Position numbers and translations under genes: made by a program. A stretch of DNA of 64,000 bases. Origin: Anaerolineae bacterium (GTDB lineage: Bacteria; Chloroflexota; Anaerolineae; UBA1429). This document shows positions 13,397 through 33,031 of this stretch, in pieces. The notes under the pieces are model-generated. The model searched no databases, was not told where the DNA came from, and was given only the letters and a program-made list of their open reading frames with translations. The DNA lies in assembly GCA_040766725.1 (NCBI GenBank), contig JAXGPZ010000001.1:2414328-2478327 (forward strand). The letters run 5' to 3'. How positions within the stretch are numbered: position 1 is the stretch's first letter; the number at the start of each line of letters is the position of its first letter.

Positions 13397-13410
13397 GCGT
13401 GCTGCCCCCT

Positions 13411-15335: not shown

Positions 15336-15359
15336 GAACCGCTTCTCTCCTTCGAGTGA

Positions 15360-16283: not shown

Positions 16284-16286
16284 GGC

Positions 16287-16699: not shown

Positions 16700-17098
16700 A
16701 GCACCTGACGAAGATCGCGTCAAGACCCCTGGGGGCCGATCGGCCATGAATGCAGCGATGGCGTTGGGCCGTGGAGCGCCTTCAGACGGTGTCTGAGCGT
16801 GCTGGCGTGGCTGTGGCACGCCTCAGGGTTGGGCTGATGACCAGCGGACGCGCCCTGCCCGCGCCGCGCTCACCTGGGAGTGCCTATGTTGTAGCACCTA
16901 CGGCGGGTGCACGCCGCCGGCGAGGTGCGCGGCCTGTCGCTGGGGCTGACCTTTATGGGAACGGCCTTTAGCGAGCCGGCGCTGATTCGGCTGGCGTATG
17001 GCTTTGAGCAGCACACGGGCGCGCGCCGCCCGCCACGCTACCTGCCCACTTTGAGGCTGCCCCAGCCCGCTTGCGGCGGCGGCCTCGCTGGGCCCTAG
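16700..17098 (+). pseudogene. C-terminal remnant of the same amidase, with frameshift and in-frame TAG
   Basis: Frame 1 gives TPGGRSAMNAAMALG, an echo of the GGSSGGSAAAVAAG amidase signature. Frame 2 gives GLSLGLTFMGTAFSEPALIRLAYGFEQHTG, the amidase C-terminal GLPvGLQliG..fdE..Llr.A.a.E motif, preceded by a TAG at 16892. Confidence 0.4.
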
Positions 17099-17727: not shown

Positions 17728-17880
17728 CGCCACTCTCCCCCACCCAGACTGGCTTTCAGTATGGACGCAGGGCGGCCGCCGCACAAGTGCGCCTGGCCAG
17801 GGGCGCCAGGCGCGCGGTGGTCCAGGCCCGCGCATCGATGGCGGCCTCAGCGAGGCCCGCGCAGGCCGGTCATTGACGCC

Positions 17881-18981
17881 CTAGAAGGTGGTCTGCAGCT
17901 TGATCGTCTTGCCCTCGCGCGCCGCCTCATAACAGCGCGTCATGATCTCGATCACGTGCCGCGCGTGCTCGGCGCTGGCCACCACGGGCTGCGCGGGGTC
18001 GAGGATGCACTCGATCAGGTTCTCGACGCCGGCGGGCAGGCCCCAGGGCTTGGTGTCCTTGGGAAAGCTGAGGTCGGTCCAGCCATACACCTCTCGTTCG
18101 CGGTCGTCGCGCCACAGCGAGAGCTTGTCGAGCGAGCCATAGATGCCGTTGACGGCGATGGTGCCATCAGAGCCAAAGATCTGCATGGCGGGCTGGCTGG
18201 TCTGCTCGCGCGTGGCGCGCACGCAAAAGGTCGAGTCGACAAAGCCAAAGCGGGCATCGCCAAAGTCGAGCAGCAGGAGCGTGTTGTCATCGACCTCGAC
18301 ATCGATCACCTTGCCCTTGTAGGGCCCAGCCCTGACGACGCGCTGCGGCCAGGAGATGCCCGACATGACGGCCACGCTTTTGGCGGGCCCCAGCAGGCCG
18401 GTGACGGTGTGCAGGCCATAGACGCCCATATCGAGCACCGGGCCAGCGCCCTGTTTGTAGAACCAGGTGGGGTCTGTCTCCCATTCCTCGTCGGGCCACG
18501 AGCCGGGGCCGCCGTGCGAATTGTGCGACAGCAGCCACGACACCTTGCCGATGGCGCCCTCGCGCAGCAACTGGGCGATCTTTTGGTTGATCGGGTCGAG
18601 CATGGTGCAGGCGGCTGCGCCCAGTTTCAGCGAGCGCTGGCGCGCCTCGTCGATCAGGTGCGTGGCCTCGGCCACCGACCCGGCCATGGACTTTTCGCTG
18701 TACACATGCTTGCCGGCGCGCAGGGCCTTGAGGTTGACCTCATAGTGCGACTGGATGTTGGTGGTGTCGACGAGCAGGTCGATCCCCGACCTGGCCAGCA
18801 TCTCGTCCAGGTCGGTGTAGACCTGCGGCACGCCGAGTTTGGCGGCCAGGCTTGCGGCGCGGCCCGGAACAGAGTCGCACACGGCGACAAACTCGGCCTT
18901 GGCGAGCGCCTTGATGCCCGGGCCATAGCTGCCGTTAGCGATGACCCCACAACCGACCAGCCCAACCTTTACCTTTTCCAT
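17881..18981 (-). CDS. Gfo/Idh/MocA-family oxidoreductase
   Basis: MEKVKVGLVGCGVIANGSYG... AAGGAGTGGAG RBS before ATG 18981. Confidence 0.8.
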   Translation of the reverse strand: MEKVKVGLVGCGVIANGSYGPGIKALAKAEFVAVCDSVPGRAASLAAKLGVPQVYTDLDEMLARSGIDLLVDTTNIQSHYEVNLKALRAGKHVYSEKSMAGSVAEATHLIDEARQRSLKLGAAACTMLDPINQKIAQLLREGAIGKVSWLLSHNSHGGPGSWPDEEWETDPTWFYKQGAGPVLDMGVYGLHTVTGLLGPAKSVAVMSGISWPQRVVRAGPYKGKVIDVEVDDNTLLLLDFGDARFGFVDSTFCVRATREQTSQPAMQIFGSDGTIAVNGIYGSLDKLSLWRDDREREVYGWTDLSFPKDTKPWGLPAGVENLIECILDPAQPVVASAEHARHVIEIMTRCYEAAREGKTIKLQTTF

Positions 18982-19151
18982 CTGCTCCACTCCTTTGTTG
19001 ACGGCCACCATGCCGCGGCTGCGCTCATTGTACTCGTCTAGCCAGGGCGCAGCCAGCGGCGCAGGCTCTGGCTGGCCGGTGGCGCGGGGTTGCGGCCAGA
19101 GGCCTGGCTCCAGATCGTGAGGCAATAGCTGCGGATTCCGGCGCTAGAGCA

Positions 19152-19181
19152 TTGACAAACGTCGCATAATCCAGGTAGAAT
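19152..19181 (+). promoter_or_regulatory. Sigma-70-type promoter (TTGACA, 18-nt spacer, TAGAAT) for the sugar ABC operon
   Basis: Read in the sequence, ~165 nt upstream of the SBP start in a divergent intergenic region. Confidence 0.4.
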
Positions 19182-19348
19182 GGCGCCAAGAGGACGGTTT
19201 GTGGCCAACACGAAAGGGGGTGTATCGCCTCATATCGCCTTTGGCGGATCGGCACTCCGAGCTGGGGCCCTATGAGCCGCGGCACTGGCGAGTTGGTGTT
19301 GGCGCCGGGCGCCGCAATGGAGCTAGCGTTCTGCGAGGAGAGGGTGGT

Positions 19349-20788
19349 ATGAACAAGCTGACACGTCGCGATTTTCTGCGGGCGGGCGAGCTGGCGGCAG
19401 CGGCCTGGGTTTTGTCGGCCTGTGCTCCGGCCGCGCCCCAAGTGATCAAAGAGGTCGTCAAGGAAACGGTCATCGTCGAGGGCACCCCCAAGGTCGTCGA
19501 GAAGGTCGTCGAGAAGGTTGTTGAGAAGACGGTGGTGGTCGAGGCGGCCGCCAAAGAGCCCATCACGCTGGAATGGTGGCCTGGCTGGCCCGGCAACTAT
19601 ATGCTGGCCATCGCCAAGCTGTTTGAGGATGCCAACCCCGGCATCAAGCTGAATGCCGTGCTCAACTATCCCGAGAAGCAGGCAGTGCTGGCGGCCGTTG
19701 CGGCCGGCACGACCCCCGATCTGATCGCCGACATTCCCTACATGGAGCTGATCGTCCGCGACGTCTTTTTAGAGATCGACGATCGCCTCACCGAGTTCCC
19801 CGATCTGGCGATCAAGGACGGCGACATTCCTGAAGCCCTGTGGGAGGTGTTCGCCTGGGAAGGCAAACATTATGGCATCCCCAGCGTAGACACGGCCGGC
19901 CGGCAGGGGTTGGGCATCAACGCGCGCGTTGCCGAAGAGGCGGGGCTGGACCCGGAGAACCCGCCGCGCACGTGGACCGAGGCGTTCGAGTGGCACAAGA
20001 AGATGACCACGTACGACGACGCCGGCAACCTGAACGTGCTGGGCTTTGACCCGATGGCCGAGCGCACCGACGCCTGCACCGACGGCGACCCCTGGATGTG
20101 GCCGCACATGTGGGGCTTTGCCTACATCAAGGACAACGTCTATGACATCGACCGCGCAGAGACGGTCGAGTTCCTGACGGTCATCAAGCGCTTTGCCGAG
20201 GACGTGGGCCCGGAAAAGATCGATGGCCTGAACACGGCCTTTAGCGGCATGAGCCGTGGCCCCTTTGGCCAGGGCAAGGTGGGCATGCGCATCACCTACC
20301 CGTCGGGGCCTGCGGGCGTGTATCGCATCAACCCCAAGGACAAGTACGTCTTTACCTGGGTGCCGATGCCAGACAACCGCCGCGATGTGACCATGCAGAC
20401 GGCCGGCGGCCACGCGGGCATGATCATGAAGGCGTCCAAGCATCCTGACGAGGCCTTCAAGCTGGCCGTGTTCCTCACGCAGGACGCGGCCTGCAACGTG
20501 CTGTTCAAAGAGGTCGGCTGGATTGGCCCCCGCCTGTCGTGGCAGGCCAAGGCCGATCTGAGCAGCTATCCTGACCATGTGGCCTCGGCGATCAAGTACT
20601 TTACCGACTCGATGAAGAACGCCGACGAGGTGTGGTGGAACAACGACCCTATCGAGGGCATCACGGCCTCAGAGTGGGAGCGTGTGTTCCAGGGCGTGCG
20701 CCATGGCGAGATCACGCCAGAGGATGGCGCCCGGCAGATGCAGGAGAACCTGACCAAGGAACTCGAGCAGATGTTGGAAGCCCGCTAA
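19349..20788 (+). CDS. Sugar ABC transporter substrate-binding lipoprotein (family 1)
   Basis: TAT motif MNKLTRRDFLRAG, lipobox LSAC, KEVVKETVIVEGTPKVVEKVVEKVVEK linker. GAGGAGAGGG RBS. Confidence 0.85.
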   Translation: MNKLTRRDFLRAGELAAAAWVLSACAPAAPQVIKEVVKETVIVEGTPKVVEKVVEKVVEKTVVVEAAAKEPITLEWWPGWPGNYMLAIAKLFEDANPGIKLNAVLNYPEKQAVLAAVAAGTTPDLIADIPYMELIVRDVFLEIDDRLTEFPDLAIKDGDIPEALWEVFAWEGKHYGIPSVDTAGRQGLGINARVAEEAGLDPENPPRTWTEAFEWHKKMTTYDDAGNLNVLGFDPMAERTDACTDGDPWMWPHMWGFAYIKDNVYDIDRAETVEFLTVIKRFAEDVGPEKIDGLNTAFSGMSRGPFGQGKVGMRITYPSGPAGVYRINPKDKYVFTWVPMPDNRRDVTMQTAGGHAGMIMKASKHPDEAFKLAVFLTQDAACNVLFKEVGWIGPRLSWQAKADLSSYPDHVASAIKYFTDSMKNADEVWWNNDPIEGITASEWERVFQGVRHGEITPEDGARQMQENLTKELEQMLEAR

Positions 20789-20873
20789 GAGAGGGATCAG
20801 GGTCAGGGCAGCAGCGTTGCCTGCTGCCCTGACCTGCGATGCATCTTGAGCGACCAAGCGAGAGGTGAACGCC

Positions 20874-21767
20874 ATGACGAACGTGGCTCGTCGTGAAGCG
20901 CGGCGCACTCTGCAGGGCCTGGCCTTTGCCTCGCCCTGGGTCATCGGTTTTCTGGCCTTTACGATCTACCCACTGCTGGCCTCGACATACTATAGCCTGA
21001 CGCGCTATGACGTGATTCGGCCGCCCAAGTACGTCGGCCTGGAGAACTATGTCGAGATCTTTTCCTCTGACCCGATCTTTCGCCTGGCCCTGGTCAACAC
21101 GCTGTACTTTGTCATCATCGGCGTCCCTGCCGCCTTTATCACGGCCTGGCTGGTGGCCAACCTGCTGAACAACGAGATGTGGGGGCGCCCCGTGTGGCGC
21201 ACCATCTTTTTTCTGCCATCGATCACGCCCATTGTGGCCAGCGTCATGGTGTGGCTGTGGATCTATAACACGCAGTTCGGCCTGATCAACGGCGCGCTGA
21301 TGGCGCGCGGGCTCAAGGTGATCCCCTTCCTCAGCAGCCCCAAGCTGGCCAAGCCCTCGCTGATTCTGGTGCAGTGTTGGGCGCAGGGCAGCTCGATCGT
21401 GATTTTTCTGGCCGCGCTGCAAGATGTGCCCCGAGAGCTGTATGAGGCGGCGACCATCGATGGCGCCAACAGCTGGCGCCGCTTTTGGAGCATCACTATT
21501 CCCATGTGCACGCCGGTGATGCTCTTTGTGCTGTTGACAGAGCTCATCGGCACGTTCCAGTCTTTCTCGCTGCCGTGGCTGCTCACCGAGGGCGGCCCCA
21601 ACTATGCCACCGAGCTCTATAGCCTGTACCTGTTCAGGAACGCCTTTGTGTTCTTCAAGATGGGCTATGCCTCGGCGCTCTCGTGGATTCTGTTCGTCGT
21701 CATCGGCCTGTTCACAGTGGCTATCTTTCGCAGCTCGGCACGCTGGGTCTACTACCGCAGTGAGTAA
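20874..21767 (+). CDS. Sugar ABC transporter permease (MalF/UgpA-like)
   Basis: Six TM helices and an EAA loop (LYEAATIDGANSWRRFWSITIP). ATG 20874 is preceded by GAGAGG. The track start 20865 is GTG. Confidence 0.85.
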   Translation: MTNVARREARRTLQGLAFASPWVIGFLAFTIYPLLASTYYSLTRYDVIRPPKYVGLENYVEIFSSDPIFRLALVNTLYFVIIGVPAAFITAWLVANLLNNEMWGRPVWRTIFFLPSITPIVASVMVWLWIYNTQFGLINGALMARGLKVIPFLSSPKLAKPSLILVQCWAQGSSIVIFLAALQDVPRELYEAATIDGANSWRRFWSITIPMCTPVMLFVLLTELIGTFQSFSLPWLLTEGGPNYATELYSLYLFRNAFVFFKMGYASALSWILFVVIGLFTVAIFRSSARWVYYRSE

Positions 21768-21845
21768 CCAGGGCGCCCAGCAGCGGTTCGTGCGCGAGCA
21801 GATCGACCTACCGTGGCTGAGCCAGCCAGAGATGGAGTGCTGACG

Positions 21846-22778
21846 ATGGCAGTTATCAGGCCTTCTTCTGCGTCGCCCTGGTCGACACGCAACAACCAGG
21901 ATGAGGCCGCCGCTGCGGCGCGACGAAAGCAGCGCGCGGCGAGGCGCTTTGGCCGCAAGTCTTTGATCACCCTGGCGGTGGCCCTGCTGAGTTTCATCTT
22001 CTTTCTGCCTTTTCTGTGGATGGTCTCCACCTCGCTCAAGATCGACCCCGAGGTGTACCAGATTCCGCCCGTCTGGATTCCGCGGAGCTTTCGCCTGGCG
22101 AACTACTTTGAGGCCATGACCTATGTGCCCTTTGGGCGCTATGTGCTGAACACGCTCCAGTATGGCATCCTGTCGGACATTGGGGTGGTGCTCTCGTCGG
22201 CCGTGTGCGCCTATAGCTTCTCACGGCTGCAGTGGAAGGGGCGCGATGCGCTCTTTGCCATTGTGCTGGCCACCATGATGGTGCCCTACCAGGTGACGAT
22301 GATCCCGCTCTACCTGATCTTTAAGCGGCTCAACTGGCTCAACACCTATCTGCCGATGGTGGTGCCCAACTATCTGGGGTCGGCGTACTTTATCTTTATG
22401 TTGCGCCAGTTCTTTATGACCATCCCGATGGAGCTATCCGACGCGGCGCGCATCGATGGCTGCAGCGAGCTGCGCATCTTTACGAGCGTCATCCTGCCGC
22501 TCTCCAAGCCGGCATTGGCGGTGGTGGCGCTGTTCCGCTTTATGGACTGCTGGAACGACTATATGGGGCCGCTGATCTATCTGCGTGACACGAAAAAGTA
22601 CACGGTGGCGCTGGGGCTGCAACACCTGCGGCAGTATGGCACGGCGGCCAGCGTCGAGCAGGTGTGGCCCCACCTGATGGCAGCCAGCACGGTGGTCACA
22701 CTGCCGGTGGTGCTGCTCTACTTTTTCACGCAGCGCACGTTTGTCGAGGGCATTGCGCTCACGGGCATCAAGGGCTGA
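21846..22778 (+). CDS. Sugar ABC transporter permease (MalG/UgpE-like)
   Basis: SDAARIDGCSELRIFTSVILP is the EAA motif. GGAG RBS before ATG 21846. Confidence 0.85.
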   Translation: MAVIRPSSASPWSTRNNQDEAAAAARRKQRAARRFGRKSLITLAVALLSFIFFLPFLWMVSTSLKIDPEVYQIPPVWIPRSFRLANYFEAMTYVPFGRYVLNTLQYGILSDIGVVLSSAVCAYSFSRLQWKGRDALFAIVLATMMVPYQVTMIPLYLIFKRLNWLNTYLPMVVPNYLGSAYFIFMLRQFFMTIPMELSDAARIDGCSELRIFTSVILPLSKPALAVVALFRFMDCWNDYMGPLIYLRDTKKYTVALGLQHLRQYGTAASVEQVWPHLMAASTVVTLPVVLLYFFTQRTFVEGIALTGIKG

Positions 22779-22849
22779 ACGCGCCAGCGACCACCGATCC
22801 GAACTGTGGCCCGCGGCCGTGCCGCGGCCAGAGATGCGAGGAGAGCCCT

Positions 22850-25177
22850 ATGGCTGCTATCGACACCAACGCAGACGCCGAGTGCTCGGCGCAGGCGCTG
22901 CGCCTGCGGCTGCAACGTAGCGCGACGCTGGCCCATCTGTTGGCGACCTACGCCACCGACGAGGGCATCGATCCCCAGAACGCGCCGCACTTTGAGGCCT
23001 GGCTGGCTCGCAGCGGCGAGCTGCCGCCCGATTTCGACGCGCTGCCCACCAACGCCGGCCTGCCGCCGCTGCTGGTGCGGGCCGATGGCAGCCCTGTGGC
23101 GTCGGCCGAAGAGTGGCCCGCGCGGCGCGCCGAGATGCTGCGCATGCTCGTGCACTATCAGCTCGGCCAACCGCCCCCACCGCCCGGCGCGATGTTCGTC
23201 GAGGATGTGGATGAGCAGCCCCTGGCGGGCGGCGGCGCGGTGTTGCGCAAGGTGCTGGTGTATGGGCCCGATGCCAAGGCCGTGGCTGCCGATCGGGCTC
23301 TGGCCGCGGTAGACGCGGCCATGTATCGCACGGTGCGGCTGCGCGTCGAGATCACCCTGCCCGACGGTGGCGGGCCCCATCCGGCGCTGGTGACGCTCGG
23401 CAGGCGCGACGGCGACCATCTGCGGGGCTGGCTGGGCGAACAGGCCGTGGCCGCGGGCTATGTGGTCTGCGCCTTTGACCGCGACGACGCCTTCCAGGCC
23501 CACGACGTCTATGCCGGCCAGGAGTGGACCGAGCTGGGCTGGTGGGCCTATGCGGCCAGCCGCTGCGTGGATTATCTGGCCGGCCTCGAGGCGGTGGATG
23601 CGGCGCAGGTGGCCATTGTCGGGCATTCGCGCGGGGCCAAGATGGCGCTGATCGCCGCCGCCCTCGACGAGCGCTTTGCCGCCGCCGTCATCAGCCACCC
23701 CGGTTCTGGCGCCGGCATGACCGAGCCCTGGCGCTACATCGGCGAAAAGTTTGGCGGCGAGACGCTCGAGTACAGCACGCGCGTCTTTCCCTATTGGAAC
23801 CATCCCCGGCTGCGCTTTTTCGCCGGCCGCGAGAACAAGCTGCCTTTCGATGCGCACTTTATGGTGGCCTTGGTGGCGCCGCGGGCGCTGTTGATGACCG
23901 AGGGCGACGCCGACGACGTGGGCGAGCCCTGGGGGGCGCAGCAGAGCTACCTGGCGGCCAGCGAGGTGTGGGCGCTACACGGCCAGCCAGAGCGGCTGGG
24001 CATCGCGTTTCATGCTGGCGGGCATCGCCTGGCGGCTGCGGTGCTGCAAGGTTATGTCGACTGGCTCGACATGCAGTTCGGCCGGCGGCCGTTCGCCTTT
24101 GCCAACACGCTGATGTACCCTTACACGTTTGAGGCCTGGCGCGCGGCCACGGGCCAGCAGGTGCACCCGCTGGCCTATCCCGATCGGCTGGGCCAGAGCC
24201 CCCTCACCCGCGACGATGGCAGCGCGGTCGACAGCGCAGCGGCGTGGCCCCAGCAGCGCGCCGCCCTGCAGCGGCGGATTCTGGACATGGTCGGCGCGCT
24301 GCCGCCGCTGGGCGCGGGCGGGCTGACGATCGTGAAGCAGGTGGAGCGCGACGGGCTGGTGGCGGCCGAGGCCGTGCTGCCCGACGGGCTGCCGGTGCAC
24401 CTGACGTACTGCGCCGACGCCGAGGGGCCGCTGCCGGTGGCGGTGTATCTGCATGGCCATCTCGACACCTGCGGCTGGGCCTGGTCGGCCGAGTATGGCT
24501 GGACGCCTGCGGTGGGCGAGCGCCTGGCGCGGCAGGGCCTGCTGGCCGTCGAGTACGACCAGTACGGCTATGGCCGCAGAAACCGCGTGGACGTGCTCGA
24601 GATGTTTGCCGCCCACCCGGAGTGGTCGGTGCTCGGGGTGATGGTGCAAGACGCCCGCCGGGTGGCGAACGCGGCCGCGGCCCTGCCGATGGCAGCGGCC
24701 GGGCAGGTGGCGGTGGTCGGGTACTCGCTCGGGGGGCTGGTGGCCATGCTGGCGGCCGCGCTCGACGAGCGCATCGCCGCTGCGGCCAGCACCTGCGGCA
24801 TCGGCTCGTTGCGGCGCGATGCCCATGGCGCCGCGACCGAGGGCCTGCGCCGCTATGCGCATCTGCGCCCGCTGCTGCCGCGGCTGGGATTTTTCGTGGG
24901 GCACGAGGCGCGCGCGCCGTTTGACATGGACGATGTGCTGGCGTTGATCGCGCCGCGGCCGGCGCTGGTGCTGGCGCCCACGCTCGATCAGGACTGGCTG
25001 CACGCCGATGTGCGCGCCTGCTATGAGGGCGCCAGGCCGGTCTATGCGCTGCTGGGGGCTCCCGAGGCGCTGGCGTTCATGGCGCCGGACGATTTCAACC
25101 GCTATCCGCCCAAGTATCAGGAGCTGGTCAACCGCTGGCTGCTGGGGGCCCTGCACAGCGCAGGTGCCGCCGGCTAG
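22850..25177 (+). CDS. Two-domain alpha/beta-hydrolase carbohydrate esterase. The N-domain is CE15 (glucuronoyl esterase)-like. The second domain has its own GxSxG nucleophile.
   Basis: 775 aa. GAGGAGAG RBS. VAIVGHSRGAKMA resembles the CE15 GCSR(x)G serine motif. The second domain carries VAVVGYSLGGLVA. Confidence 0.7.
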   Translation: MAAIDTNADAECSAQALRLRLQRSATLAHLLATYATDEGIDPQNAPHFEAWLARSGELPPDFDALPTNAGLPPLLVRADGSPVASAEEWPARRAEMLRMLVHYQLGQPPPPPGAMFVEDVDEQPLAGGGAVLRKVLVYGPDAKAVAADRALAAVDAAMYRTVRLRVEITLPDGGGPHPALVTLGRRDGDHLRGWLGEQAVAAGYVVCAFDRDDAFQAHDVYAGQEWTELGWWAYAASRCVDYLAGLEAVDAAQVAIVGHSRGAKMALIAAALDERFAAAVISHPGSGAGMTEPWRYIGEKFGGETLEYSTRVFPYWNHPRLRFFAGRENKLPFDAHFMVALVAPRALLMTEGDADDVGEPWGAQQSYLAASEVWALHGQPERLGIAFHAGGHRLAAAVLQGYVDWLDMQFGRRPFAFANTLMYPYTFEAWRAATGQQVHPLAYPDRLGQSPLTRDDGSAVDSAAAWPQQRAALQRRILDMVGALPPLGAGGLTIVKQVERDGLVAAEAVLPDGLPVHLTYCADAEGPLPVAVYLHGHLDTCGWAWSAEYGWTPAVGERLARQGLLAVEYDQYGYGRRNRVDVLEMFAAHPEWSVLGVMVQDARRVANAAAALPMAAAGQVAVVGYSLGGLVAMLAAALDERIAAAASTCGIGSLRRDAHGAATEGLRRYAHLRPLLPRLGFFVGHEARAPFDMDDVLALIAPRPALVLAPTLDQDWLHADVRACYEGARPVYALLGAPEALAFMAPDDFNRYPPKYQELVNRWLLGALHSAGAAG

Positions 25178-25187
25178 GGAGGGACAG

Positions 25188-26234
25188 ATGGCTCACGCGC
25201 AGCGCAACTTTTCGATGCAGGCCTACTGGGAGCGGGTCACCGCCGAGTGGACGCCGCAGCTCCACTTTCGGGGCGCCACCCGCGCCGACTGGGAGGCGTG
25301 GCGGGCTGAGGCCAGCGCCAGGTATCGCCAGTTGCTGGGCGAGCTGCCCGAGCCGGCGCCGCTCGACGCCGAGGTGGAGTACAGCGTCGAGGACGGCGAC
25401 CTGATCCGTGAACGGGTGGTGTTTCAGGCCGAGGCGTTCATGTCGGTGCCCTGCATCGTGCTGCGGCCCAAGGCCATGGCGGCCGATCGCTCGCACGCCG
25501 CCATCCTGTGCAGTCACGGGCATGGGCCTTTTGGCAAAGACCCGGTGGCCGGGGTGCGCTCGTCGGCGCAGCATGTGGCCCAGATAGAGCAGCACAACTA
25601 TAACTATGGCGAGCAGATGGCGAGGGCCGGCTATCTGACGCTGAGCCCCGACCTGCGCGCCTTTGGCGAGCGGCGCGACGGGTGGTCGCAGGGGATGCCG
25701 GGCGAGGCCTACTGCAACTCGACCTTTGTGCGCGGGGCCTTGCTGGGGATCTATCCGCTGGCGCTCAACGTGTTCGACATGATGCGCTGCGTGGACTATA
25801 TGCAGACGCGGCCAGAGGTGGACCCCGAGCGGATCGGCATGATGGGGCTGTCGCAGGGCGGCACGATGACGACCTTTACCATCGCGGCCGAGCCGCGCAT
25901 CAAGGCCGCCGACATCATCTGCTACGTGAACCCGTTTCGCGCCTTTGCGATCGAGCAGTGGGACAACCTGTGCGGCTCTCAACTGCTGCCCAACCTGTAT
26001 CGCTATCTCGACACCGACGATGTGGCCGGCCTGATGGCGCCGCGCCCGTTGCTGATCGAGATGGGCATCTATGACAACTGCTTTCTGTTGCAGGATACGC
26101 TCCAGGGGTTCGAGGGAGTGCGGCGCATCTATCGCGCCGCCGGCGCCGAGGCCGATCTATGGAGCGACGTGCATGCGGGGCCGCACGCATTTGGCGGCAA
26201 CAAGGCGTTCGAGTTTTTTGACCGGTATCTCTAG
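25188..26234 (+). CDS. Alpha/beta-hydrolase esterase, CE7 (acetylxylan esterase / cephalosporin-C deacetylase)-like
   Basis: MMGLSQGGTMT resembles the CE7 GxSQGG motif. GGGAGGG RBS. The start is 11 nt after the upstream stop. Confidence 0.65.
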   Translation: MAHAQRNFSMQAYWERVTAEWTPQLHFRGATRADWEAWRAEASARYRQLLGELPEPAPLDAEVEYSVEDGDLIRERVVFQAEAFMSVPCIVLRPKAMAADRSHAAILCSHGHGPFGKDPVAGVRSSAQHVAQIEQHNYNYGEQMARAGYLTLSPDLRAFGERRDGWSQGMPGEAYCNSTFVRGALLGIYPLALNVFDMMRCVDYMQTRPEVDPERIGMMGLSQGGTMTTFTIAAEPRIKAADIICYVNPFRAFAIEQWDNLCGSQLLPNLYRYLDTDDVAGLMAPRPLLIEMGIYDNCFLLQDTLQGFEGVRRIYRAAGAEADLWSDVHAGPHAFGGNKAFEFFDRYL

Positions 26235-26262
26235 CGAGCCACGCACAGCAGCAAGGAGCGAC

Positions 26263-27597
26263 ATGACGCATCGGATCGTGGTGGTAGGTGGGGGCAGCGC
26301 TGGCTGGGGCCCCAAGCTGATGTCTGACCTGTTTCTGACGCCTGCCCTGGCCGACAGCACCTATGTGCTGCATGACCTCAACCAGGGCAATGCCGACCGC
26401 ATCGCGCGTTTTGCCACCAAGCTGGCAGACCAACTGGGGGTGCAGCCCACCATCGTCGTGGAGGGCGATCCCGACCAGGCCTATGCCGAGGCTGACTTTG
26501 TGCTCATCACCATCTCAACGGGCGGCCTGGAGGCCATGGGGCATGACCTGGCCGTGCCCGAGCGCTATGGCATCTATCATACGGTGGGCGACACGGTGGG
26601 CCCCGGCGGCTGGGCCAGAGCGTTGCGCAACGTGCCGGTCTTTCAGCAGATCGCCCAGCGGGTCAACGTGCTGGCGCCAGACGCCGTCATCCTCAACTAC
26701 TCGAACCCGATGGCGCAGCTCACCAAGACGCTGGCCGTCAGCACCGACCAGCCGGTGGTGGGCCTGTGCCACGGGCTCTTTGAGACGCTCGAGTTTCTGC
26801 AGTTCTTGCTGAACATCAAGGACGAGCACGATATACAGGCGGTGTATGGCGGCGTCAACCACTTTTTCTGGATCACCGACCTGCGCATCCGGGGTAACGA
26901 CGGCTATGAGCTGCTGGAGGAGCTGCTGGGCGAGCGCTCGCTGCTCGAGGTGGCCGCCGAGCTGAACCCTGAGCTGGCGCATCGCGTGAGCCTGGCGTCA
27001 GAGCTGCTGCGCGTGACCGGCATGCTCACCTACGCCGCCGATCGCCACACCAGCGAGTTCTTTAGCCACATCCTGACGTCGACCGAGCGCATGGCCGAGT
27101 ATGGGATCGTGCGCACCAGCATCGCCGATCGCCGGCGCAACATGACCAACACGATGGCGCGCATCGACGACATGACCCGCAGCGGCATACCGGCGGCCTA
27201 TGGCCAGCGCTCGCGCGAGACGGCGGCCGACATCATCAACGCGTTCGTCACCGGCAAGCCGTTCATCGACGTGGGCAACGTGCCCAACGTCGGGCAGATC
27301 GCCAACCTGCCGATGGGTGCCGTGGTCGAGACGCCGGTGCTGGTATCGCCGAACGGCTTTCAGCCGATCACCGTGGGCGAGTTGCCCGAGCCGACGGCCA
27401 CCTGGCTGGACCGCATCGTGCGCGTGCAAGAGATGACCGTTGACGCGGCCCTGCTGGGCGACCTGGACGAGGCGCTAATGGCGCTGGCGCTCGATCCGCT
27501 GTGCGCCCACCTGGACTGGACGCAGGTCGAGGAGCTGGGCATCGAGCTGTTGCGCGCCAACGCGGCCTATCTGCCCCAGTTCCAGGGCATGCTCTAG
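26263..27597 (+). CDS. Glycoside hydrolase family 4 (NAD+/Mn2+-dependent glycosidase)
   Basis: MTHRIVVVGGGSAGW is the GH4 Rossmann N-terminus. Also LCHG, NHFFW. AAGGAG RBS. Confidence 0.8.
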   Translation: MTHRIVVVGGGSAGWGPKLMSDLFLTPALADSTYVLHDLNQGNADRIARFATKLADQLGVQPTIVVEGDPDQAYAEADFVLITISTGGLEAMGHDLAVPERYGIYHTVGDTVGPGGWARALRNVPVFQQIAQRVNVLAPDAVILNYSNPMAQLTKTLAVSTDQPVVGLCHGLFETLEFLQFLLNIKDEHDIQAVYGGVNHFFWITDLRIRGNDGYELLEELLGERSLLEVAAELNPELAHRVSLASELLRVTGMLTYAADRHTSEFFSHILTSTERMAEYGIVRTSIADRRRNMTNTMARIDDMTRSGIPAAYGQRSRETAADIINAFVTGKPFIDVGNVPNVGQIANLPMGAVVETPVLVSPNGFQPITVGELPEPTATWLDRIVRVQEMTVDAALLGDLDEALMALALDPLCAHLDWTQVEELGIELLRANAAYLPQFQGML

Positions 27598-27609
27598 AGC
27601 GAGGTGCGT

Positions 27610-28920
27610 ATGAAGATCACGATCATCGGCGCGGGCAGCTATGTGTTCACCCGCAACCTGCTGACCGATTTTCTGACGTTTCCAGCGCTGCAAGAGGCGG
27701 ACATCTGGCTGGAGGACATCGAGCCAGAGCGCCTCACGGTGATGGCGGCGTTGGCAGAGCGGATGGTGTCGCAGCAAAAGTGCGGCGTCAGCATCCACAC
27801 CACGACGGATCTGCGCGCGGCCCTGGACGGCGCCGACTATGTGTTCAGCACCGTGCGGGTGGGCGACACGCGCAGCAACCTGGAGATACCGGCCCGGTAT
27901 GGCGTCAGCGTGTCGGTGGCCGACACCACCGGCGCGGGCGCGGCCTTTTACTTTTTGCGGAATGCGCCCGTCATCTTGCAGGTGGCGCGCACGATGCAAG
28001 AGGTGTGCCCCAACGGGCTGCTGCTCAACTACACGAACCCGATGGGCATGTTGTGCTGGGCGGTCAGCCTGCAGAGCAAGATCCGCAGCGTGGGGCTATG
28101 CCACTCGGTGCAGGGCACAGCGATGACGCTGGCCTCGTACATCGGCGCGCCCTTTGAGGAGATATCGTTCTGGGTGGCGGGGCTCAACCACATGGCGTGG
28201 TTCCTCGAGTTCCTGTGGCGCGGCGAGGACGCGTACCCTCTGCTGTGGCGCGCCATGCAAGACCCGGACCTCTATGCGCGCGACCGCGTGCGCTGGGACC
28301 TGATGCGCTACTTTGGCGCGTTTGTGTCCGAGTCGTCGACGCACAGCTCCGAGTATCACCCCTACTTTCGGCGCACGCCGGCGCTGATCGAGCGCTATCT
28401 GGGCCTCGAGATCGGCGGCCCCGGCCAGCCGAGCTATCTGGACCATCTGCGCAGCAGCCAGGCGCGCGGCGCCGAGCGGCGGCAGGCGCGAGAGGCGGAG
28501 AACCGCCAGCTCGCCTATGGTAGCGAGCCGATCCCGATTGTGCGCGGCCGCGAGTATGGCAGTTGCATTCTGAACGCCATCGAGACCAACACGCCGTTCC
28601 TGTTCAACGGCAACGTGGCCAACGACGGGCTGATCACCAACCTGCTGCCGGGCGCCATCGTCGAGGTGCCGATCATGGTGGATGGCACCGGGCTTCATCC
28701 GCTGCACGTTGGCGCCCTGCCGCCGGCGCTGGCGGCTTTGAACCGCACGGCGCTGAACTGCCAGGAGCTGGCGGTGCGCGGCCTGCTCGAGGGCCAGCGC
28801 GAGTACATCTACCAGGCGGCGCAGCTCGACCCGCTGGTGGCCGCGCTGCTGTCGCTCGACCAGATCAGGGCGATGGTCGACGAGCTCTTTGCCTCTGACG
28901 CCGAGTACATCACGATCTAG
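27610..28920 (+). CDS. Glycoside hydrolase family 4, second tandem paralog
   Basis: MKITIIGAGSYVFT, NYTNPMG, LCHSVQGT, NHMAWF. ~35% identical to the upstream GH4. Confidence 0.8.
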   Translation: MKITIIGAGSYVFTRNLLTDFLTFPALQEADIWLEDIEPERLTVMAALAERMVSQQKCGVSIHTTTDLRAALDGADYVFSTVRVGDTRSNLEIPARYGVSVSVADTTGAGAAFYFLRNAPVILQVARTMQEVCPNGLLLNYTNPMGMLCWAVSLQSKIRSVGLCHSVQGTAMTLASYIGAPFEEISFWVAGLNHMAWFLEFLWRGEDAYPLLWRAMQDPDLYARDRVRWDLMRYFGAFVSESSTHSSEYHPYFRRTPALIERYLGLEIGGPGQPSYLDHLRSSQARGAERRQAREAENRQLAYGSEPIPIVRGREYGSCILNAIETNTPFLFNGNVANDGLITNLLPGAIVEVPIMVDGTGLHPLHVGALPPALAALNRTALNCQELAVRGLLEGQREYIYQAAQLDPLVAALLSLDQIRAMVDELFASDAEYITI

Positions 28921-28944
28921 CAACGGGGGAGGACGCCGGCGGTC

Positions 28945-30168
28945 GTGGCCAGTGAACTGATGACTTCAGAGACATCGATCCGGGTGATCAACCGCAAGCG
29001 GGTGCTCACCTTGATCTTGTACCGACCGGGGCTGACGCGCACCGAGCTCGCCGAGGCTTGCGGGCTGAGCGCCGCCACGGTGAGCAGCCTGGTTGCAGAG
29101 CTACTGGACGAAGGGATTCTGCACGAGCACGACGGCGGGGGGCGCCTGCAGCGCAATCGCACGCTGTGGCTCAACCGCAATGCCGGCTGCGCGGTGGGCA
29201 TCGAGCTCTCGCCGCGACACTGCCGGGCCGTGTTGGTGGACATGGAGATGAACGTGGCCCGCCGCACAGAGCGCGCCCTGCCGAACACCCTGGTCGACGA
29301 CACGATCGTGGCGCTGGCCGACACCGTGCGTGAGCTCTGCGCGGGGGCCCACGCCCCGCTGGTGGGCGTGGCGGTGGCCGTGCCAGGCCCCGATGACGTC
29401 GAGGGCCGACGGGTCGTCTTTTCTGAGAGCCTGGGCTGGACCGACGTGGCGCTGGCCGAGCGACTGGCGGCGTTCACCGGCTGCTCGGTGTCGGTGATCA
29501 ACCGCCCCAAGGCGGGCGTGTTGGGCGAGCACTGGTATGGCGCCGGCCAGGGCATCGACAACCTGGTCTATGTCTCGGTGTCGAGCGGCGTGGCGGCCGG
29601 CATCTTTATCGGGGGGCAGCTCTTTGCCGGCGCTTTTGGCTATGGTGGCGAGCTCGGCCATACTACGATCATCGAGGACGGGCCGCTGTGCGTCTGTGGC
29701 AACCGCGGCTGCCTGGAGGCGGTCGCCAGCCTGCCGGCCATCGCAGCGGCGGTGGGCCGGCGCATGCGGGCGGGCGAGCCCTGCGTGCTCGCCGAGACGC
29801 CCGAAGGGCAGGCTGCCGGAGACTATGAGCCGCTCATCGCCGCGGCGCGCAATGGAGACCTGTTGGTGCGCGACGAGATTCGCGCCGCCAGCCGCTACAT
29901 CGGCATCGCGGTGGCCAACCTCATCAACCTGTTCAACCCACAGATGGTCATCGTGGGGGGCCAACTGGCGTTGGCCGGAGAAGTGGCGCTCAACACCGTG
30001 CGCGAGACGGCCCAACGGCGGGCCTTTCCGCTCAGCTATCGTAACGTGCAGATCGTCGCCAGCGCGCTGGGGGGCGATTCGGCCTGCCTGGGGGCGTGTG
30101 CCTATGTCATCGCCGAGCACATCAGCCGCCTAGGCGCCCGACAGCCGCTCAGCACCACCCAGAACTGA
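28945..30168 (+). CDS. ROK-family transcriptional regulator (NagC/XylR-like repressor)
   Basis: N-terminal HTH (RKRVLTLILYRPGLTRTELAEACGLSAATVS). ROK domain with zinc motif CVCGNRGC. The GTG start at 28945 has a GGGGGAGG RBS. An alternative ATG sits at 28960. Confidence 0.75.
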   Translation: MASELMTSETSIRVINRKRVLTLILYRPGLTRTELAEACGLSAATVSSLVAELLDEGILHEHDGGGRLQRNRTLWLNRNAGCAVGIELSPRHCRAVLVDMEMNVARRTERALPNTLVDDTIVALADTVRELCAGAHAPLVGVAVAVPGPDDVEGRRVVFSESLGWTDVALAERLAAFTGCSVSVINRPKAGVLGEHWYGAGQGIDNLVYVSVSSGVAAGIFIGGQLFAGAFGYGGELGHTTIIEDGPLCVCGNRGCLEAVASLPAIAAAVGRRMRAGEPCVLAETPEGQAAGDYEPLIAAARNGDLLVRDEIRAASRYIGIAVANLINLFNPQMVIVGGQLALAGEVALNTVRETAQRRAFPLSYRNVQIVASALGGDSACLGACAYVIAEHISRLGARQPLSTTQN

Positions 30169-30180
30169 CAGGAGTCTAGC

Positions 30181-30960
30181 ATGAAGTCAGCCAACACCGC
30201 CCTCTGGGCCAGACGGTATGGCCAGCTCGAGGCCCGCAACTATGCCGACGCCGTGACGATGGGGGCGGCCGCAGCCGACGACCTCGCCGCCATCATCAAC
30301 CAGGCGGTGCGCGAGCGGGGCCTGGCCTCGATCATCGTGGCCACCGGCAACTCGCAGTTGCGCTTTATGGAGGCGCTGCGCACCCGCAAGGACATCGCCT
30401 GGGAGCGCGTGGTCGTCTTTCATATGGACGAGTATCTGGGCATGGCGGCCGATCACCCGGCCAGCTTTCGCAGGTACATTCACCAGGAGCTGACCGACAT
30501 TGTGCGCCCACAGGCGTTCTATGGCGTCGACGGCGATGCGCCCGACACAGCCGGCGAGCTGGCCCGCTACACCGCCCTGCTGGAGCGTTACCCCGCTGAT
30601 GCCTGCGTGATGGGCATCGGCGAGAACGGCCACCTGGCGTTCAATGATCCGCCGGCCGACTTGACCACCACTGCAACGATCCACGTGGTGACACTGGACA
30701 TGGCGTGCCGGCAGCAGCAGGTGGGCGAGGGCCACTTTGCCACGCTGGACGAGGTGCCCACGCACGCGCTGTCGCTGACGGTGCCGGCGCTGCTCAAGCC
30801 CGCCCATGTGCTGGTGGTGGTGCCCGAGGCGCGCAAGGCGCCGGCCGTCAAGGCTGCGCTCACCGGCCCCGTCACGCCGCTGTGCCCGGCCTCGGTGTTG
30901 CAGACGCAGCCGCAGGCCGTGATCTATCTGGAGCCCGCCTCGGCGGCGCTGTTGCCGTAG
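30181..30960 (+). CDS. Glucosamine-6-phosphate deaminase / 6-phosphogluconolactonase family (NagB-like) sugar-phosphate isomerase
   Basis: IVATGNSQL and MGIGENGHLAFNDP motifs. AGGAG RBS. Confidence 0.75.
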   Translation: MKSANTALWARRYGQLEARNYADAVTMGAAAADDLAAIINQAVRERGLASIIVATGNSQLRFMEALRTRKDIAWERVVVFHMDEYLGMAADHPASFRRYIHQELTDIVRPQAFYGVDGDAPDTAGELARYTALLERYPADACVMGIGENGHLAFNDPPADLTTTATIHVVTLDMACRQQQVGEGHFATLDEVPTHALSLTVPALLKPAHVLVVVPEARKAPAVKAALTGPVTPLCPASVLQTQPQAVIYLEPASAALLP

Positions 30961-30981
30961 GCGAGCAGCCCCTGGCTGACC

Positions 30982-32307
30982 TCACCGGAACGCTACCTGC
31001 GCGCTCATGCCGGCGCGCAGGCTGGCCGGGCGCTCTTCGAGCAGGATGGTGACGCGATAGACGACATCGCCTCCGAGGGTGTCGGCCAGCGGGGCGATGG
31101 CCTGCACGCGGCCTGCGATGTCGACGCCGAGCGCCTCGACCGTCACCGTGACGGGCTGCCCCACCGCGACGCGGGGGACATCGCGTTCGCCGAGATCGGT
31201 GGTCTCGGCCAGGAGCGTGTCGAGGTCGGCCAGCGCTGCCGCCGCCTGGCCGGGCAGCAGCCATTGCCCCAACTCTGCCGACAGCCGGGTCAGCACACCG
31301 TCAAATGGCGCTCGCAGGCTCAGTTGCTCTTGCAGCGCCAGGGCAGACTGCACCTGCGCCTGGGCGGCCTCGACCTGCGCCTCGGCAGCGGCCAGCTCTG
31401 GGCGACGAGGGCCGGCCTGCAGAGCAGCCAGCGCCGCCCGAGCGGCATCGACCTGGGCCTGGGCAGCGGCCAGATCATAGCGGGTGGCAGGCTGGCGAGC
31501 CAGCGCCAGTTGCGCCTCGGCCGAACGCACGGCCTGACGAGCCCGCTCGACCTCGGCCGGATCGGCGCCCCGTTCGACTGTAGCGAGCTGGTTCTCGGCC
31601 AGACCGACACTCGTCTCTGCCACCAGCACGCGAGCCCTGGCGCCATCGCACTGCGCGCCCGCCAGCGCCGCATTGCCGCAGACCACATCGCGCTCGCTCT
31701 GCGCCGCCCAAAGGGCATCTTTGGCGGCGGCCACGCCCAGATGCGCGCGCTGCACCGCGAGGTCGTCGGGGGCGCTCTGAAGCTGCCCGAGCGCTGCCTG
31801 CGCCGAGGCCAGGTTGGCCTGGGCCTGCGCCACCTGCTCGGGGCGGGGACCGGCTGCCAGCGCGTCATAGTGGGCCTGGGCGCCATCGAGCGCCGCCTGC
31901 GCCTGCTGCAGCGCCTCGGCCGACGGGCCCGCCAGCAGCAACGCGTGGTTGGCCTGCGCAGCATGCAGCGCCGCCTGCGCCAGAGCCGCCTGAGCGGCCA
32001 CTACGTCGTCCTCGAGAGCGAGTAGCAGGTCGCCGGCCGCCACGGCGTCACCCTCGGCAAAGGGCAATGCCACCACCCGGCCGGCGCCCACGGCAGAGAG
32101 CTCGACCTGTCTGGCCGGCACGATCCTGGCGGCCGCCACCACGCCCGCGGTGGAGCTTGGCGAGGGCGATCGAGAGGCGTCCGTCGAGGGTGGCTCTTTG
32201 CCGAGCACCACGGTGGGCAGCGGCACGCGCGAGGCGCCGGGCTGTCTACAGGCCGTCAACAGCAGCGCGGCGATGGTCAACGCAGGCCAGAGGCTCGAGG
32301 CGCGCAT
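30982..32307 (-). CDS. Efflux-transporter periplasmic adaptor (HlyD/MFP family, MacA-like) lipoprotein
   Basis: Lipobox LLLTAC. Long Ala/Gln-rich coiled coils. C-terminal beta-barrel (VTVTVEALGVDIAGRV). ATG 32307 has a GAGGAG RBS and is adjacent to the upstream stop (TGAGATG). Confidence 0.75.
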   Translation of the reverse strand: MRASSLWPALTIAALLLTACRQPGASRVPLPTVVLGKEPPSTDASRSPSPSSTAGVVAAARIVPARQVELSAVGAGRVVALPFAEGDAVAAGDLLLALEDDVVAAQAALAQAALHAAQANHALLLAGPSAEALQQAQAALDGAQAHYDALAAGPRPEQVAQAQANLASAQAALGQLQSAPDDLAVQRAHLGVAAAKDALWAAQSERDVVCGNAALAGAQCDGARARVLVAETSVGLAENQLATVERGADPAEVERARQAVRSAEAQLALARQPATRYDLAAAQAQVDAARAALAALQAGPRRPELAAAEAQVEAAQAQVQSALALQEQLSLRAPFDGVLTRLSAELGQWLLPGQAAAALADLDTLLAETTDLGERDVPRVAVGQPVTVTVEALGVDIAGRVQAIAPLADTLGGDVVYRVTILLEERPASLRAGMSAQVAFR

Positions 32308-32308
32308 C

Positions 32309-33031
32309 TCACTGCTCCTCGGCTGGCGGCGGCACGGCTCCGTTCGCCACCACCAGCCCATCGCGCAGGGTGATGACCCGCCGCGCATACCTGATGACGC
32401 GCGGATCGTGGGTGGCAAAGATAAAGGTGACGCCCGTCTCCGCGTTGAGGCGCAGCATCATCTCCATGATCTGCTGGCCGTTGGCCGTGTCGAGGTTGGC
32501 CGTGGGCTCGTCGGCCAGCACGATGCGCGGGCGCTTGACCAGGGCCCGCGCCACGGCGGTGCGCTGCTGCTCGCCCCCCGAGAGCTGATCGGGGCGGTGC
32601 TGCGACCGGTCGGCCAGCCCCACGGCCTCGAGCAGGTGCATCACGCGAGCGCGGCGTTCGTCGGCGCCGATCCCGGTCAGCAGCAGAGGCATCTCGACGT
32701 TCTCGTAGGCGCTGAGGGTGGGAATCAGTGCATAGAACTGAAAGATGAACCCGATGGCGTTCTGGCGGATCTCGGCGCGCTCGTCGCGGCTGAGACGGCT
32801 CACCTCGCGCCCGTCGAGCCACACCGAGCCGCTGGTAGGCTGATCCAGGCAGCCCATCAACTGCAACAGCGTGGTCTTGCCCGATCCCGACGGCCCGACC
32901 AGCGTCAGGAACTCGCCCTCGTCGACCTCGAGGCTGACGCCGCGCAGGGCTCGCGTGGTGAACTCGCCGACAACATAGTCGCGTGTGACGTTGTCAACCC
33001 GGGCAACTGGCATAGTCTCCATGCTCCTCAT
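32309..33031 (-). CDS. ABC transporter ATP-binding protein (MacB/LolD-type)
   Basis: [28 protein letters not shown]. Confidence 0.85.

Follow-up and report, generated by a model that had tools for sequence, protein, structure and literature searches.

A nine-gene operon of an Anaerolineae bacterium with CE15-type, Abhydrolase_7 and GH4 proteins: a candidate system for esterified uronic-acid oligosaccharides

The operon described here lies in a stretch of 64,000 nucleotides (nt) from an Anaerolineae bacterium (assembly GCA_040766725.1, contig JAXGPZ010000001.1, positions 2,414,328 to 2,478,327), referred to below as the window. Nine genes on its + strand (19349-30960) encode a sugar importer, two esterase-like proteins of 775 and 348 amino acids (aa), two glycosidases of family GH4 (GH4-A and GH4-B), a ROK-family regulator, and a NagB-like protein. 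The locus is an ordinary kind of system, an ATP-binding cassette (ABC) importer with cytoplasmic carbohydrate-active enzymes under a ROK regulator, built from uncharacterised subfamilies. On balance, the evidence leans towards a ROK-regulated operon that takes up an alpha-linked uronic-acid oligosaccharide, esterified at its carboxyls or at neighbouring hydroxyls, and breaks it down in the cytoplasm. Uronates are suggested by a total of three modules that are CE15-type or CE15-like, by the placing of GH4-A in the LplD lineage, and by the genes for hexuronate use and for GH28 that neighbour the esterases in other genomes.

Operon organisation and conservation

Every member of the operon has strong family support from Pfam and NCBIfam, and the codon-position GC content of all nine open reading frames (ORFs) is coding-like in a surrounding window of 62–70% GC. 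The spacers between successive genes measure 76, 45, 71, 10, 28, 6, 24, and 12 nt. A sigma-70-type promoter-like site precedes the first gene (19152-19181, + strand; TTGACA-18 nt-TAGAAT, 11 of 12 consensus positions) and is the sole promoter-like match in the 14.5 kb scanned (17000-31500). The closest related genome locus, L016 of an Anaerolineales metagenome-assembled genome, carries TTGACA-18-TAATAT upstream of its orthologous binding-protein gene, at a position that aligns with the site in the window. A first-pass annotation of this DNA had described nine co-directional genes behind one sigma-70-type promoter, among them a sugar ABC importer, two GH4 enzymes, a ROK protein, and a NagB-family protein, and this description is borne out by the gaps of 6–76 nt, the promoter-like site shared with L016, and the family matches. 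The next gene downstream is HlyD-like and convergent (30982-32418). A search of 19000-19350 for an operator of the ROK protein found weak GC-rich inverted repeats alone, inside or beside the start of the divergent oxidoreductase gene, and no palindrome was found to be conserved across the upstream regions of the window, L016, and L001; no operator is claimed.

The importer begins with a CUT1-type sugar-binding lipoprotein (SBP; 19349-20788, +, with its ATG at 19349), which matches PF13416 (4.5e-19) and PF01547 (4.3e-16) and carries an RRDFL signal of twin-arginine-like type, the lipobox LSAC, and a linker of the form (VVEK)n. It is followed by a MalF/UgpA-like permease (20865-21767, +; PF00528, 1.7e-12), for which the UgpA, GlcT, and MalF models score below their cut-offs, and a MalG/UgpE-like permease (21813-22778, +; PF00528, 3.5e-18), for which the same is true of the UgpE and MalG models. 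A family-1 SBP with two MalF/MalG-type permeases places the system among the CUT1 importers. There is no ABC ATPase gene in the locus.

The order SBP, permease, permease, 775-aa esterase, 348-aa esterase, GH4-A is found in three metagenome contigs (L001-L003) at 62–78% protein identity. L016, at 80–88% identity, carries the SBP, both permeases, the 348-aa esterase, GH4-A, the ROK regulator, and the NagB-like gene in this order, without the 775-aa esterase and without GH4-B. As L001-L003 preserve the gene order, and L016 part of it, the operon is not a chance arrangement. The absence of two genes from L016 further separates a core, formed by the importer, the 348-aa protein of the Abhydrolase_7 family, GH4-A, the ROK protein, and the NagB-like protein, from the accessory 775-aa esterase and GH4-B.

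The tandem CE15 protein

The 775-aa protein (22850-25177, +) consists of two CE15-type modules. Its N-terminal half (aa 1-417; 22850-24100, +) is unambiguously CE15 and is predicted to be catalytic. This domain matches PF22244 (GCE_fung) at 6.7e-39, with 134.5 bits against a cut-off of 27, and around twenty distinct CE15 sequences in the PDB, led by OtCE15A at ~1e-26. The CE15 label that it had first been given therefore holds for this half of the protein. The predicted catalytic set comprises Ser260, Arg261, Lys264, His392, and Asp355. Within the motif GHSRGAK (aa 258-264), all 48 full-length homologues keep G258, S260, R261, and K264, and H392 is likewise invariant among them.

The N-terminal domain shares its fold, the G-H-S-R-x-x-K motif, and the catalytic His with the bacterial CE15 glucuronoyl esterases OtCE15A, SuCE15C, TtCE15A, and MZ0003. 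The likeness to OtCE15A extends to E304, which aligns with Glu305 and is near-invariant among the homologues, and to the non-canonical acid D355, whose counterpart is the alternative acid Asp356 and which is acidic (Asp or Glu) in 47 of the 48. These assignments follow the roles of Glu305 and Asp356 in OtCE15A. Unlike those four enzymes, the family lacks the canonical Glu 23 residues past the Ser, where the window protein has His283 and its relatives have His or Ser, and the N-terminal domain has a Val at the position of Trp358.

The C-terminal half (aa 418-775; 24101-25177, +) is a diverged CE15-like domain that is homologous to the N-terminal half (BLASTP 4e-21; hhalign probability 100%, E 6.7e-43, 325 columns). 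When the two are aligned, H392 pairs with Asn750, and this position of the catalytic His is Asn in 44 of the 48 homologues. The motif GYSLGG (aa 624-629) has Leu in place of the CE15 Arg, the CE15 Lys is missing, and Ser626, the would-be nucleophile, is kept in just 37 of the 48. The C-terminal module is therefore most likely non-catalytic. The protein had been read as a fusion of two full alpha/beta-hydrolase domains, each with its own GxSxG motif. Both motifs exist, as GHSRGAK and GYSLGG, but the second half has no catalytic His and the protein is thus not a pair of full independent esterases.

The tandem architecture is not unique to this locus, as many of the 526 proteins that match the 775-aa protein are full-length (750–810 aa). 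A comparison of N-termini found no signal peptide in the 775-aa proteins of the Chloroflexi clade, while distant homologues carry lipoprotein or secretory signals, and the window protein is predicted to be cytoplasmic. This location, together with the fusion to a second module without the catalytic His, Arg, and Lys, sets it apart from the CE15 enzymes named above.

A further difference lies in the genomic partners of the family: in other genomes these are GH28 and GH140-like genes, not genes for xylan use. In L005 and L015, two SusC/D loci of Bacteroidota type, the 775-aa esterase stands between GH140-like and GH28 genes, with a second GH28, a GH36, and a GH31 gene in L005 and a DUF4185 gene in L015. 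The esterase gene adjoins PfkB/KdgK-type and KDPG-aldolase (KdgA)-type genes in L013 and lies directly upstream of a GH4-A orthologue in L012; in L004 it comes after an orthologue of GH4-B and a gene for a xylose-isomerase-like TIM barrel. An alpha-galactosidase recurs nearby, as GH4-B orthologues in L001 and L004 and as GH36 in L005. Several further contexts are uninformative, and a pattern-based scan of genome contigs with the 775-aa esterase found no relative. In the window, the 775-aa gene lies in the GC-richest stretch of the operon (0.70 vs. 0.62 in the permease region, 20000-22000), which together with its absence from L016 is compatible with later acquisition.

The Abhydrolase_7 esterase and its genomic neighbours

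The 348-aa protein (25188-26234, +) is a predicted cytoplasmic serine hydrolase that had initially been labelled CE7 on the strength of a GLSQGG motif. The motif is present, but the protein matches Abhydrolase_7 (PF12715; 4.5e-12, 46.3 bits, aa 5-299) better than AXE1/CE7 (PF05448), to which the match is local (27.8 bits, 1.3e-6, aa 146-242). The CE7 signature, an RGQ oxyanion motif together with GxSQGG, is incomplete, with DLRAFGER standing where the CE7 structure 3fcy has DVRGQGGQ. A Foldseek search with a confident AlphaFold model (predicted local distance difference test score 90) ranked 3g8y and 3nuz first, both uncharacterised Bacteroides proteins, at a template modelling (TM) score of 0.76. 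CE15 glucuronoyl esterases and the methylesterase BT1017 (6goc) reached 0.63–0.66 and CE7 enzymes just 0.53–0.57, and the CE7 label was dropped. The 348-aa protein is an Abhydrolase_7 member with a fold nearer to CE15 enzymes and the pectin methylesterase BT1017 than to CE7.

BT1017 of B. thetaiotaomicron takes the 6-O-methyl ester off backbone galacturonic acid (GalA) of rhamnogalacturonan II (RG-II), and 3nuz has been named as its nearest structure (PMC7939467). The 348-aa protein shares with BT1017, 3nuz, and 3g8y the alpha/beta-hydrolase fold, an N-terminal cap, and G-x-S-x-G-G, and its model has a TM score of 0.66 to BT1017 at 21% identity. In contrast, sequence similarity is marginal, with phmmer detecting 3g8y at 0.0014 and missing 6goc, and the 348-aa protein has neither the DUF3826 domain nor a signal peptide. 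A comparison of ESTHER and CAZy describes Abhydrolase_7 as "putative AXE, not in CAZy", AXE being acetyl xylan esterase, and gives no characterised member (PMC12103068).

Conservation of the 348-aa family is very high. Ser222, Asp296, and His333 are invariant, as are the basic residues K117, R162, R215, R237, and R286. Identity to the 120 relatives listed is 60–88%, and these come from Anaerolineae, Caldilineaceae, Planctomycetota, Omnitrophota, Ratteibacteria, Verrucomicrobiota, Lentisphaerae, Clostridia, Limnochordia, and a cultured Cohnella.

For a neighbour analysis, ORFs around 80 genome loci with the 348-aa esterase were clustered and the cluster representatives scanned. A Gfo/Idh/MocA oxidoreductase is by far the commonest neighbour (51 of 80 loci), often on both sides. 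Hexuronate genes form a recurrent minority. The tagaturonate epimerase UxaE is encoded immediately upstream in 5 loci, UxaC and KduD occur in L047, and KduI and KduD in L043. PfkB kinases are found in L023 and L031, and L087 has a GH4 with a CHEV motif together with GH95. In about 30 Caldilineaceae genomes (L046-L094) the 348-aa esterase belongs to a conserved block near position 10000 of each, which runs SBP, two permeases, two GNAT acetyltransferases, PhyH-like dioxygenase, Gfo/Idh/MocA, PhyH-like, esterase, Gfo/Idh/MocA and is without GH4 or CE15.

The frequency of oxidoreductase neighbours raises the alternative that the 348-aa protein is a sugar-acid lactone hydrolase rather than a carbohydrate esterase, partnering Gfo/Idh/MocA dehydrogenases that act on monosaccharides released by GH4 enzymes; in the window the partner would be the divergent gene at 17881-19011 (-). 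The high identity across phyla fits a small, invariant substrate, the invariant Lys and Arg residues fit an anionic ligand, and weak matches to dienelactone hydrolase and a lactonase model point the same way. However, the closest folds are those of putative glycan esterases, CE15 enzymes, and the methylesterase BT1017, the family offers no characterised member for comparison, and the oxidoreductase of the window lies outside the operon on the opposite strand. A lactonase is accordingly considered an unlikely identity for the 348-aa protein, and esterase remains the preferred one.

Two lineages of GH4 enzymes

GH4-A (26263-27597, +) and GH4-B (27604-28920, +) both match PF02056 and PF11975 at 1e-42 to 1e-50. 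They carry the dinucleotide-binding motifs VVGGGSAG and IIGAGSYV and the Cys-His metal motifs GLCHG and GLCHS. The pair had been taken for an in-tandem duplication, but a recent event of this kind is ruled out by an identity of just 29% and the differing metal-site motifs, and on their sequences GH4-A and GH4-B belong to different lineages.

GH4-A is an LplD-related glycosidase of the NAD+/Mn2+ type with a CHGL motif and is predicted to be an alpha-uronidase. Its top PDB match, end-to-end, is the B. subtilis alpha-galacturonidase LplD (3fef; 7e-51, 177 bits), with the next at 116 bits. The Thermotoga-type GH4 structures 1vjt and 3u95 match at just 67–104 bits, and their similarity to GH4-A is weak (1.3e-17 and 3.9e-18, respectively). 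This difference speaks against the alpha-glucuronidase role first proposed for the pair, as does the match of GH4-B to an alpha-galactosidase model.

GH4 motifs were read directly from the PDB alignments, where AglA has CHGH, Thermotoga neapolitana 3u95 has CHGV, which resembles the CHGL of GH4-A, and 6-phospho-beta-glucosidases have CNVP. Orthologues of GH4-A in L001, L012, and L016 keep GLCHG[LIV]FE[ST]. The first-pass annotation had named assignment to non-carbohydrate esterase families and clustering of the GH4 enzymes with maltose-6-P glucosidases as findings that would overturn it. Neither was observed, as the N-terminal domain of the 775-aa protein is CE15 (OtCE15A, 1e-26) and the GH4 enzymes have CHGL and CHSV rather than CNVP.

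GH4-B is a MelA-type, alpha-galactosidase-like protein that passes the NCBIfam alpha-galactosidase model NF011657 (493.2 bits vs. a cut-off of 486). Its motif GLCHSVQGT is conserved in orthologues, and its CHSV is the motif of MelA. It is like MelA-type GH4 alpha-galactosidases in both the subfamily model and this motif; unlike them, it lies in a uronate-type rather than a melibiose operon, and it is missing from the closest related operon, L016.

The nearest known counterpart of the importer and GH4-A is lplABCD of B. subtilis, in which a GH4 of the LplD lineage, also cytoplasmic, is paired with an ABC importer. The window locus goes beyond it in having a second GH4, three esterase modules, and genes for a ROK regulator and a NagB-like protein.

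The ROK regulator and the NagB-like protein

The ROK-family protein (28945-30168, +) matches PF00480 at 2.5e-53 and has an N-terminal winged helix-turn-helix (HTH) detected by HTH_24 and MarR_2. NagC and Mlc models match below their cut-offs. The HTH and a CVCGNRGC zinc motif, with GIELSPRH in place of the DxGxT motif of ROK kinases, fit a predicted transcriptional repressor.

The last gene (30181-30960, +) encodes an isomerase/deaminase-like protein of the NagB family (PF01182, 7.2e-22) that represents a distinct subfamily. It had been thought that it might be a 6-phosphogluconolactonase, but this is not supported, in view of the retained deaminase motifs FHMDEYLG and GENGHLAFNDP, of PDB matches of 3.5e-27 to NagB against 1.5e-8 to 6-phosphogluconolactonase structures, and of a score of 56.9 bits with the 6-phosphogluconolactonase model TIGR01198 (cut-off 124.45). 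The protein also scores well below the NagB equivalog cut-offs (TIGR00502, 112.1 vs. 236.9 bits; NF001684, 125.8 vs. 326). A Gln aligns with the phosphate-binding Arg172 of NagB and TGGTP is changed to TGNSQ. The subfamily as a whole is marked by ATG(N/A)SQ, where NagB has PTGGTP, by GENGH(L/I)AFNDP, and by C(R/K)xQQxxEGxF, which sits where NagB has its Arg172-containing segment. In E. coli NagB, the catalytic Asp lies in MDEY and the catalytic His and Glu in GHIAFNEP, and Arg172 binds phosphate.

The two genes recall the regulator-deaminase pairs of NagC and NagB, as the gene for a ROK protein whose N-terminus bears an HTH precedes one for a PF01182 protein with MDEY and GH-AFN(D/E)P. They differ in that both proteins fall under the equivalog cut-offs, that the phosphate-site residues of the NagB-like protein are altered, and that the locus has no NagA, kinase, or phosphotransferase system gene. 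Genes of the same NagB-like subfamily recur in L001, L016, L020, L043, L047, and L084. The last of these is a 13-gene operon (1029-16603) of a cultured and experimentally accessible Firmicute, Cohnella suwonensis KACC 13347. Its order is NagB-like, GH4 with a CNAP motif, SBP, two permeases, Gfo/Idh/MocA, LacI, 348-aa esterase, Gfo/Idh/MocA, DLH-like hydrolase, NagK-like (8e-28), NagA-like (9e-54), and MFS. As a separate matter, the idea that the NagB-like protein stands in for the uronate isomerase UxaC is weakened by L047, which has both near the 348-aa esterase.

Such pairings raise the alternative of a microbial or other substrate in which uronic acids are joined to amino sugars, as in a capsule, an exopolysaccharide, or a glycosaminoglycan-like glycan. 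Once ester groups had been removed and the GH4 enzymes had cut the chain, a kinase from another locus would phosphorylate the amino sugar, the NagB-like protein would deaminate it, and the ROK protein would sense an aminosugar phosphate like NagC. The presence of the ROK and NagB-like genes within the conserved core (L016), the retention of the deaminase catalytic motifs, the recurrence of NagB-like genes beside the esterase in L020, L043, and L047, and the union of the NagB subfamily, GH4, the Abhydrolase_7 esterase, two Gfo/Idh/MocA proteins, and NagK-like and NagA-like proteins in Cohnella all agree with this. Conversely, homologues of NagA and NagK are absent from the window, the NagB-like protein falls short of the NCBI NagB cut-offs and has a Gln at the Arg172-aligned position, the Cohnella GH4 with its CNAP motif is of a different type, and no family specific to amino-sugar glycosides is present. 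A glycan of this kind is therefore held to be a minor contender, with odds well against it.

Proposed pathway and substrate

From the families, residues, lack of signal peptides, operon structure, and synteny described above, we infer a sequence of activities for the uronic-acid oligosaccharide. The lipoprotein SBP and the two permeases would import it, drawing on an ATPase encoded at another site, as CUT1 systems commonly do. Inside the cell, ester groups would be removed by the N-terminal CE15 domain and possibly by the Abhydrolase_7 esterase, while the C-terminal CE15-like domain probably serves in binding or as a scaffold only. GH4-A would then remove an exposed alpha-uronosyl residue by the NAD+/Mn2+ redox-elimination of GH4, and GH4-B would remove alpha-galactosyl residues. 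The ROK protein would repress the operon until a product accumulates. The NagB-family protein may be an aminosugar-phosphate deaminase or an isomerase.

The most likely source of the oligosaccharide is a galacturonide of pectin type, although this is a tentative preference that falls short of an even chance. It is favoured over glucuronoxylan because GH28, UxaE, KduI, and the CHEV-type GH4 found around the esterases are all galacturonate-linked, because no xylan gene turned up among the ~45 ORFs scanned in the window or in the related loci, and because a BT_1020-like (GH143-type) protein is encoded 30 kb from the operon.

A xylan-derived source in general is unlikely, and the specific route via glucuronoxylan side chains (aldouronates), which was the original interpretation of the locus, is a little less likely still. 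In that route, the CE15 domain would act on (methyl)glucuronoyl esters, the second esterase would deacetylate, GH4-A would be an alpha-glucuronidase, and GH4-B would perhaps remove an alpha-galactose cap. In some hardwood xylans, alpha-galactose caps methylglucuronic acid. The bona fide CE15 domain, with its Ser-Arg-x-x-Lys and with glucuronoyl esterases as nearest structures, is in keeping with the route, as is the CHG(L/I/V) motif of GH4-A, which is closer to CHGV of 3u95 than to CHEV of LplD. However, a Pfam scan of ~45 ORFs across the 64-kb window found no xylanase, beta-xylosidase, GH67/GH115, or xylose-catabolic gene, and the neighbours of both esterases elsewhere are GH28, GH140, UxaE, and KduI-type genes and never xylan genes. 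GH4-A is nearer to LplD (177 bits) than to the Thermotoga-type structures (67–104 bits), the second esterase is not CE7, and the NagB-like gene would be left unexplained. That the operon serves to de-esterify and cleave glycosides of uronic acids is thus supported in general terms, whereas the assignment to glucuronoxylan is not.

Several observations weigh against the uronic-acid oligosaccharide, or against its origin from pectin. The CHEV active-site motif, named in the title of Thompson et al. 2013 as cited in PMC4650693, is not kept in GH4-A, which has CHGLFET where LplD (3fef) has CHEVFGT. With CHGL facing CHEV in LplD and CHGV in 3u95, a choice between GalA and glucuronic acid as the substrate of GH4-A cannot be made from its sequence. 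The top PDB match of the SBP is the generic sugar SBP 4qrz (1.8e-14), and it has no informative characterised relative. Hexuronate catabolic genes (UxaC, UxaE, KduI, KdgK, KdgA) are absent from the window. Most neighbourhoods of the 348-aa esterase are not hexuronate loci, and their commonest partner, Gfo/Idh/MocA, would fit a lactonase role too. Finally, the NagB-like gene of the conserved core is left unexplained by a pectin or a xylan substrate, and in Cohnella its subfamily, found together with NagK-like and NagA-like genes, points to amino sugars.

A more speculative proposal, and the least probable of those considered, is that the core of importer, Abhydrolase_7, CHG(L/I/V)FE GH4, and NagB-like protein marks an undescribed cytoplasmic route for modified hexuronates. 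In such a route the Abhydrolase_7 protein, 60–88% identical across at least seven phyla, may be a methyl-uronate esterase, a uronolactonase, or a de-N-acetylase, and the tandem CE15 protein with its dead second module may be a pseudo-enzyme-assisted uronoyl esterase. The NagB-like protein may act on a substrate with a C6-carboxylate (an aminouronic acid or a uronate) instead of a 6-phosphate, which would explain both its altered phosphate-site residues and the absence of a kinase.

Other genes in the window

The gene that diverges from the operon (17881-19011, -; PF01408, PF22725, PF02894) encodes a Gfo/Idh/MocA sugar oxidoreductase and possible functional partner. Its top PDB matches are DgpA and glucose-fructose oxidoreductase (~9e-20), and an identity as a GH109-type glycosidase is unsupported. 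Downstream of it, 17095-17730 (-) encodes a protein that is anchored in the membrane and has a (Pro-Thr)n linker; its C-terminal domain has no match in Pfam, NCBIfam, or the PDB. Two more Gfo/Idh/MocA oxidoreductase genes and an SDR gene are found at 2998-5841, and a V-type ATPase subunit C/AC39 gene at 921-2048.

A possible acidic-sugar cluster occupies 61170-63047, 63014-64000, 59345-60280, and 60255-61049 (all -). One of its genes joins a beta-propeller of BT_1020-like type (PF24067, 6.4e-108), the family to which the Dha-hydrolase module for RG-II belongs, to a sialidase-like carbohydrate-binding module. Its neighbours are a second BNR/sialidase-like gene, truncated at the end of the window, and genes for a DHDPS-family lyase and an IclR regulator. 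This cluster may serve an acidic keto-deoxy sugar such as Dha or Kdo. At 46357-51460 (-) there is another sugar SBP with two permeases, and after these come a URO-D-like protein of MtaA type and a corrinoid protein that binds B12. Together they may link sugar import to corrinoid-dependent demethylation. In L017, L037, and L043 the 348-aa esterase, too, has URO-D-like genes nearby.

The remaining genes recorded are a tungsten-family aldehyde:ferredoxin oxidoreductase (36026-38017, +; AFOR_N and AFOR_C, 1e-70 to 1e-103), an imuA-imuB-dnaE2-type mutagenesis cassette (39249-44676, -) of a RecA-like protein, an IMS/Y-family protein, and a second DNA polymerase III alpha, and an HNH endonuclease gene after it (44511-45683). 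A drop in GC to 0.56 at 48–50 kb (48000-50000) and an rve_3 integrase fragment at 56078-56737 may be traces of mobile DNA.

Implications

The locus is of a standard type and does not change the understanding of glycan utilisation. Its interest lies in the meeting of four uncharacterised, widespread groups: the cytoplasmic tandem CE15 proteins with more than 500 relatives, the Abhydrolase_7 esterase, which is very strongly conserved from Chloroflexota to Clostridia, the LplD-like GH4 clade of GH4-A with its different signature motif, and the NagB-like subfamily. Assays of these groups could show how imported esterified uronic acids are handled by bacteria that lack GH67/GH115 enzymes or the classical beta-helix pectin methylesterases, and could widen the substrate range of CE15 past lignin-carbohydrate esters.

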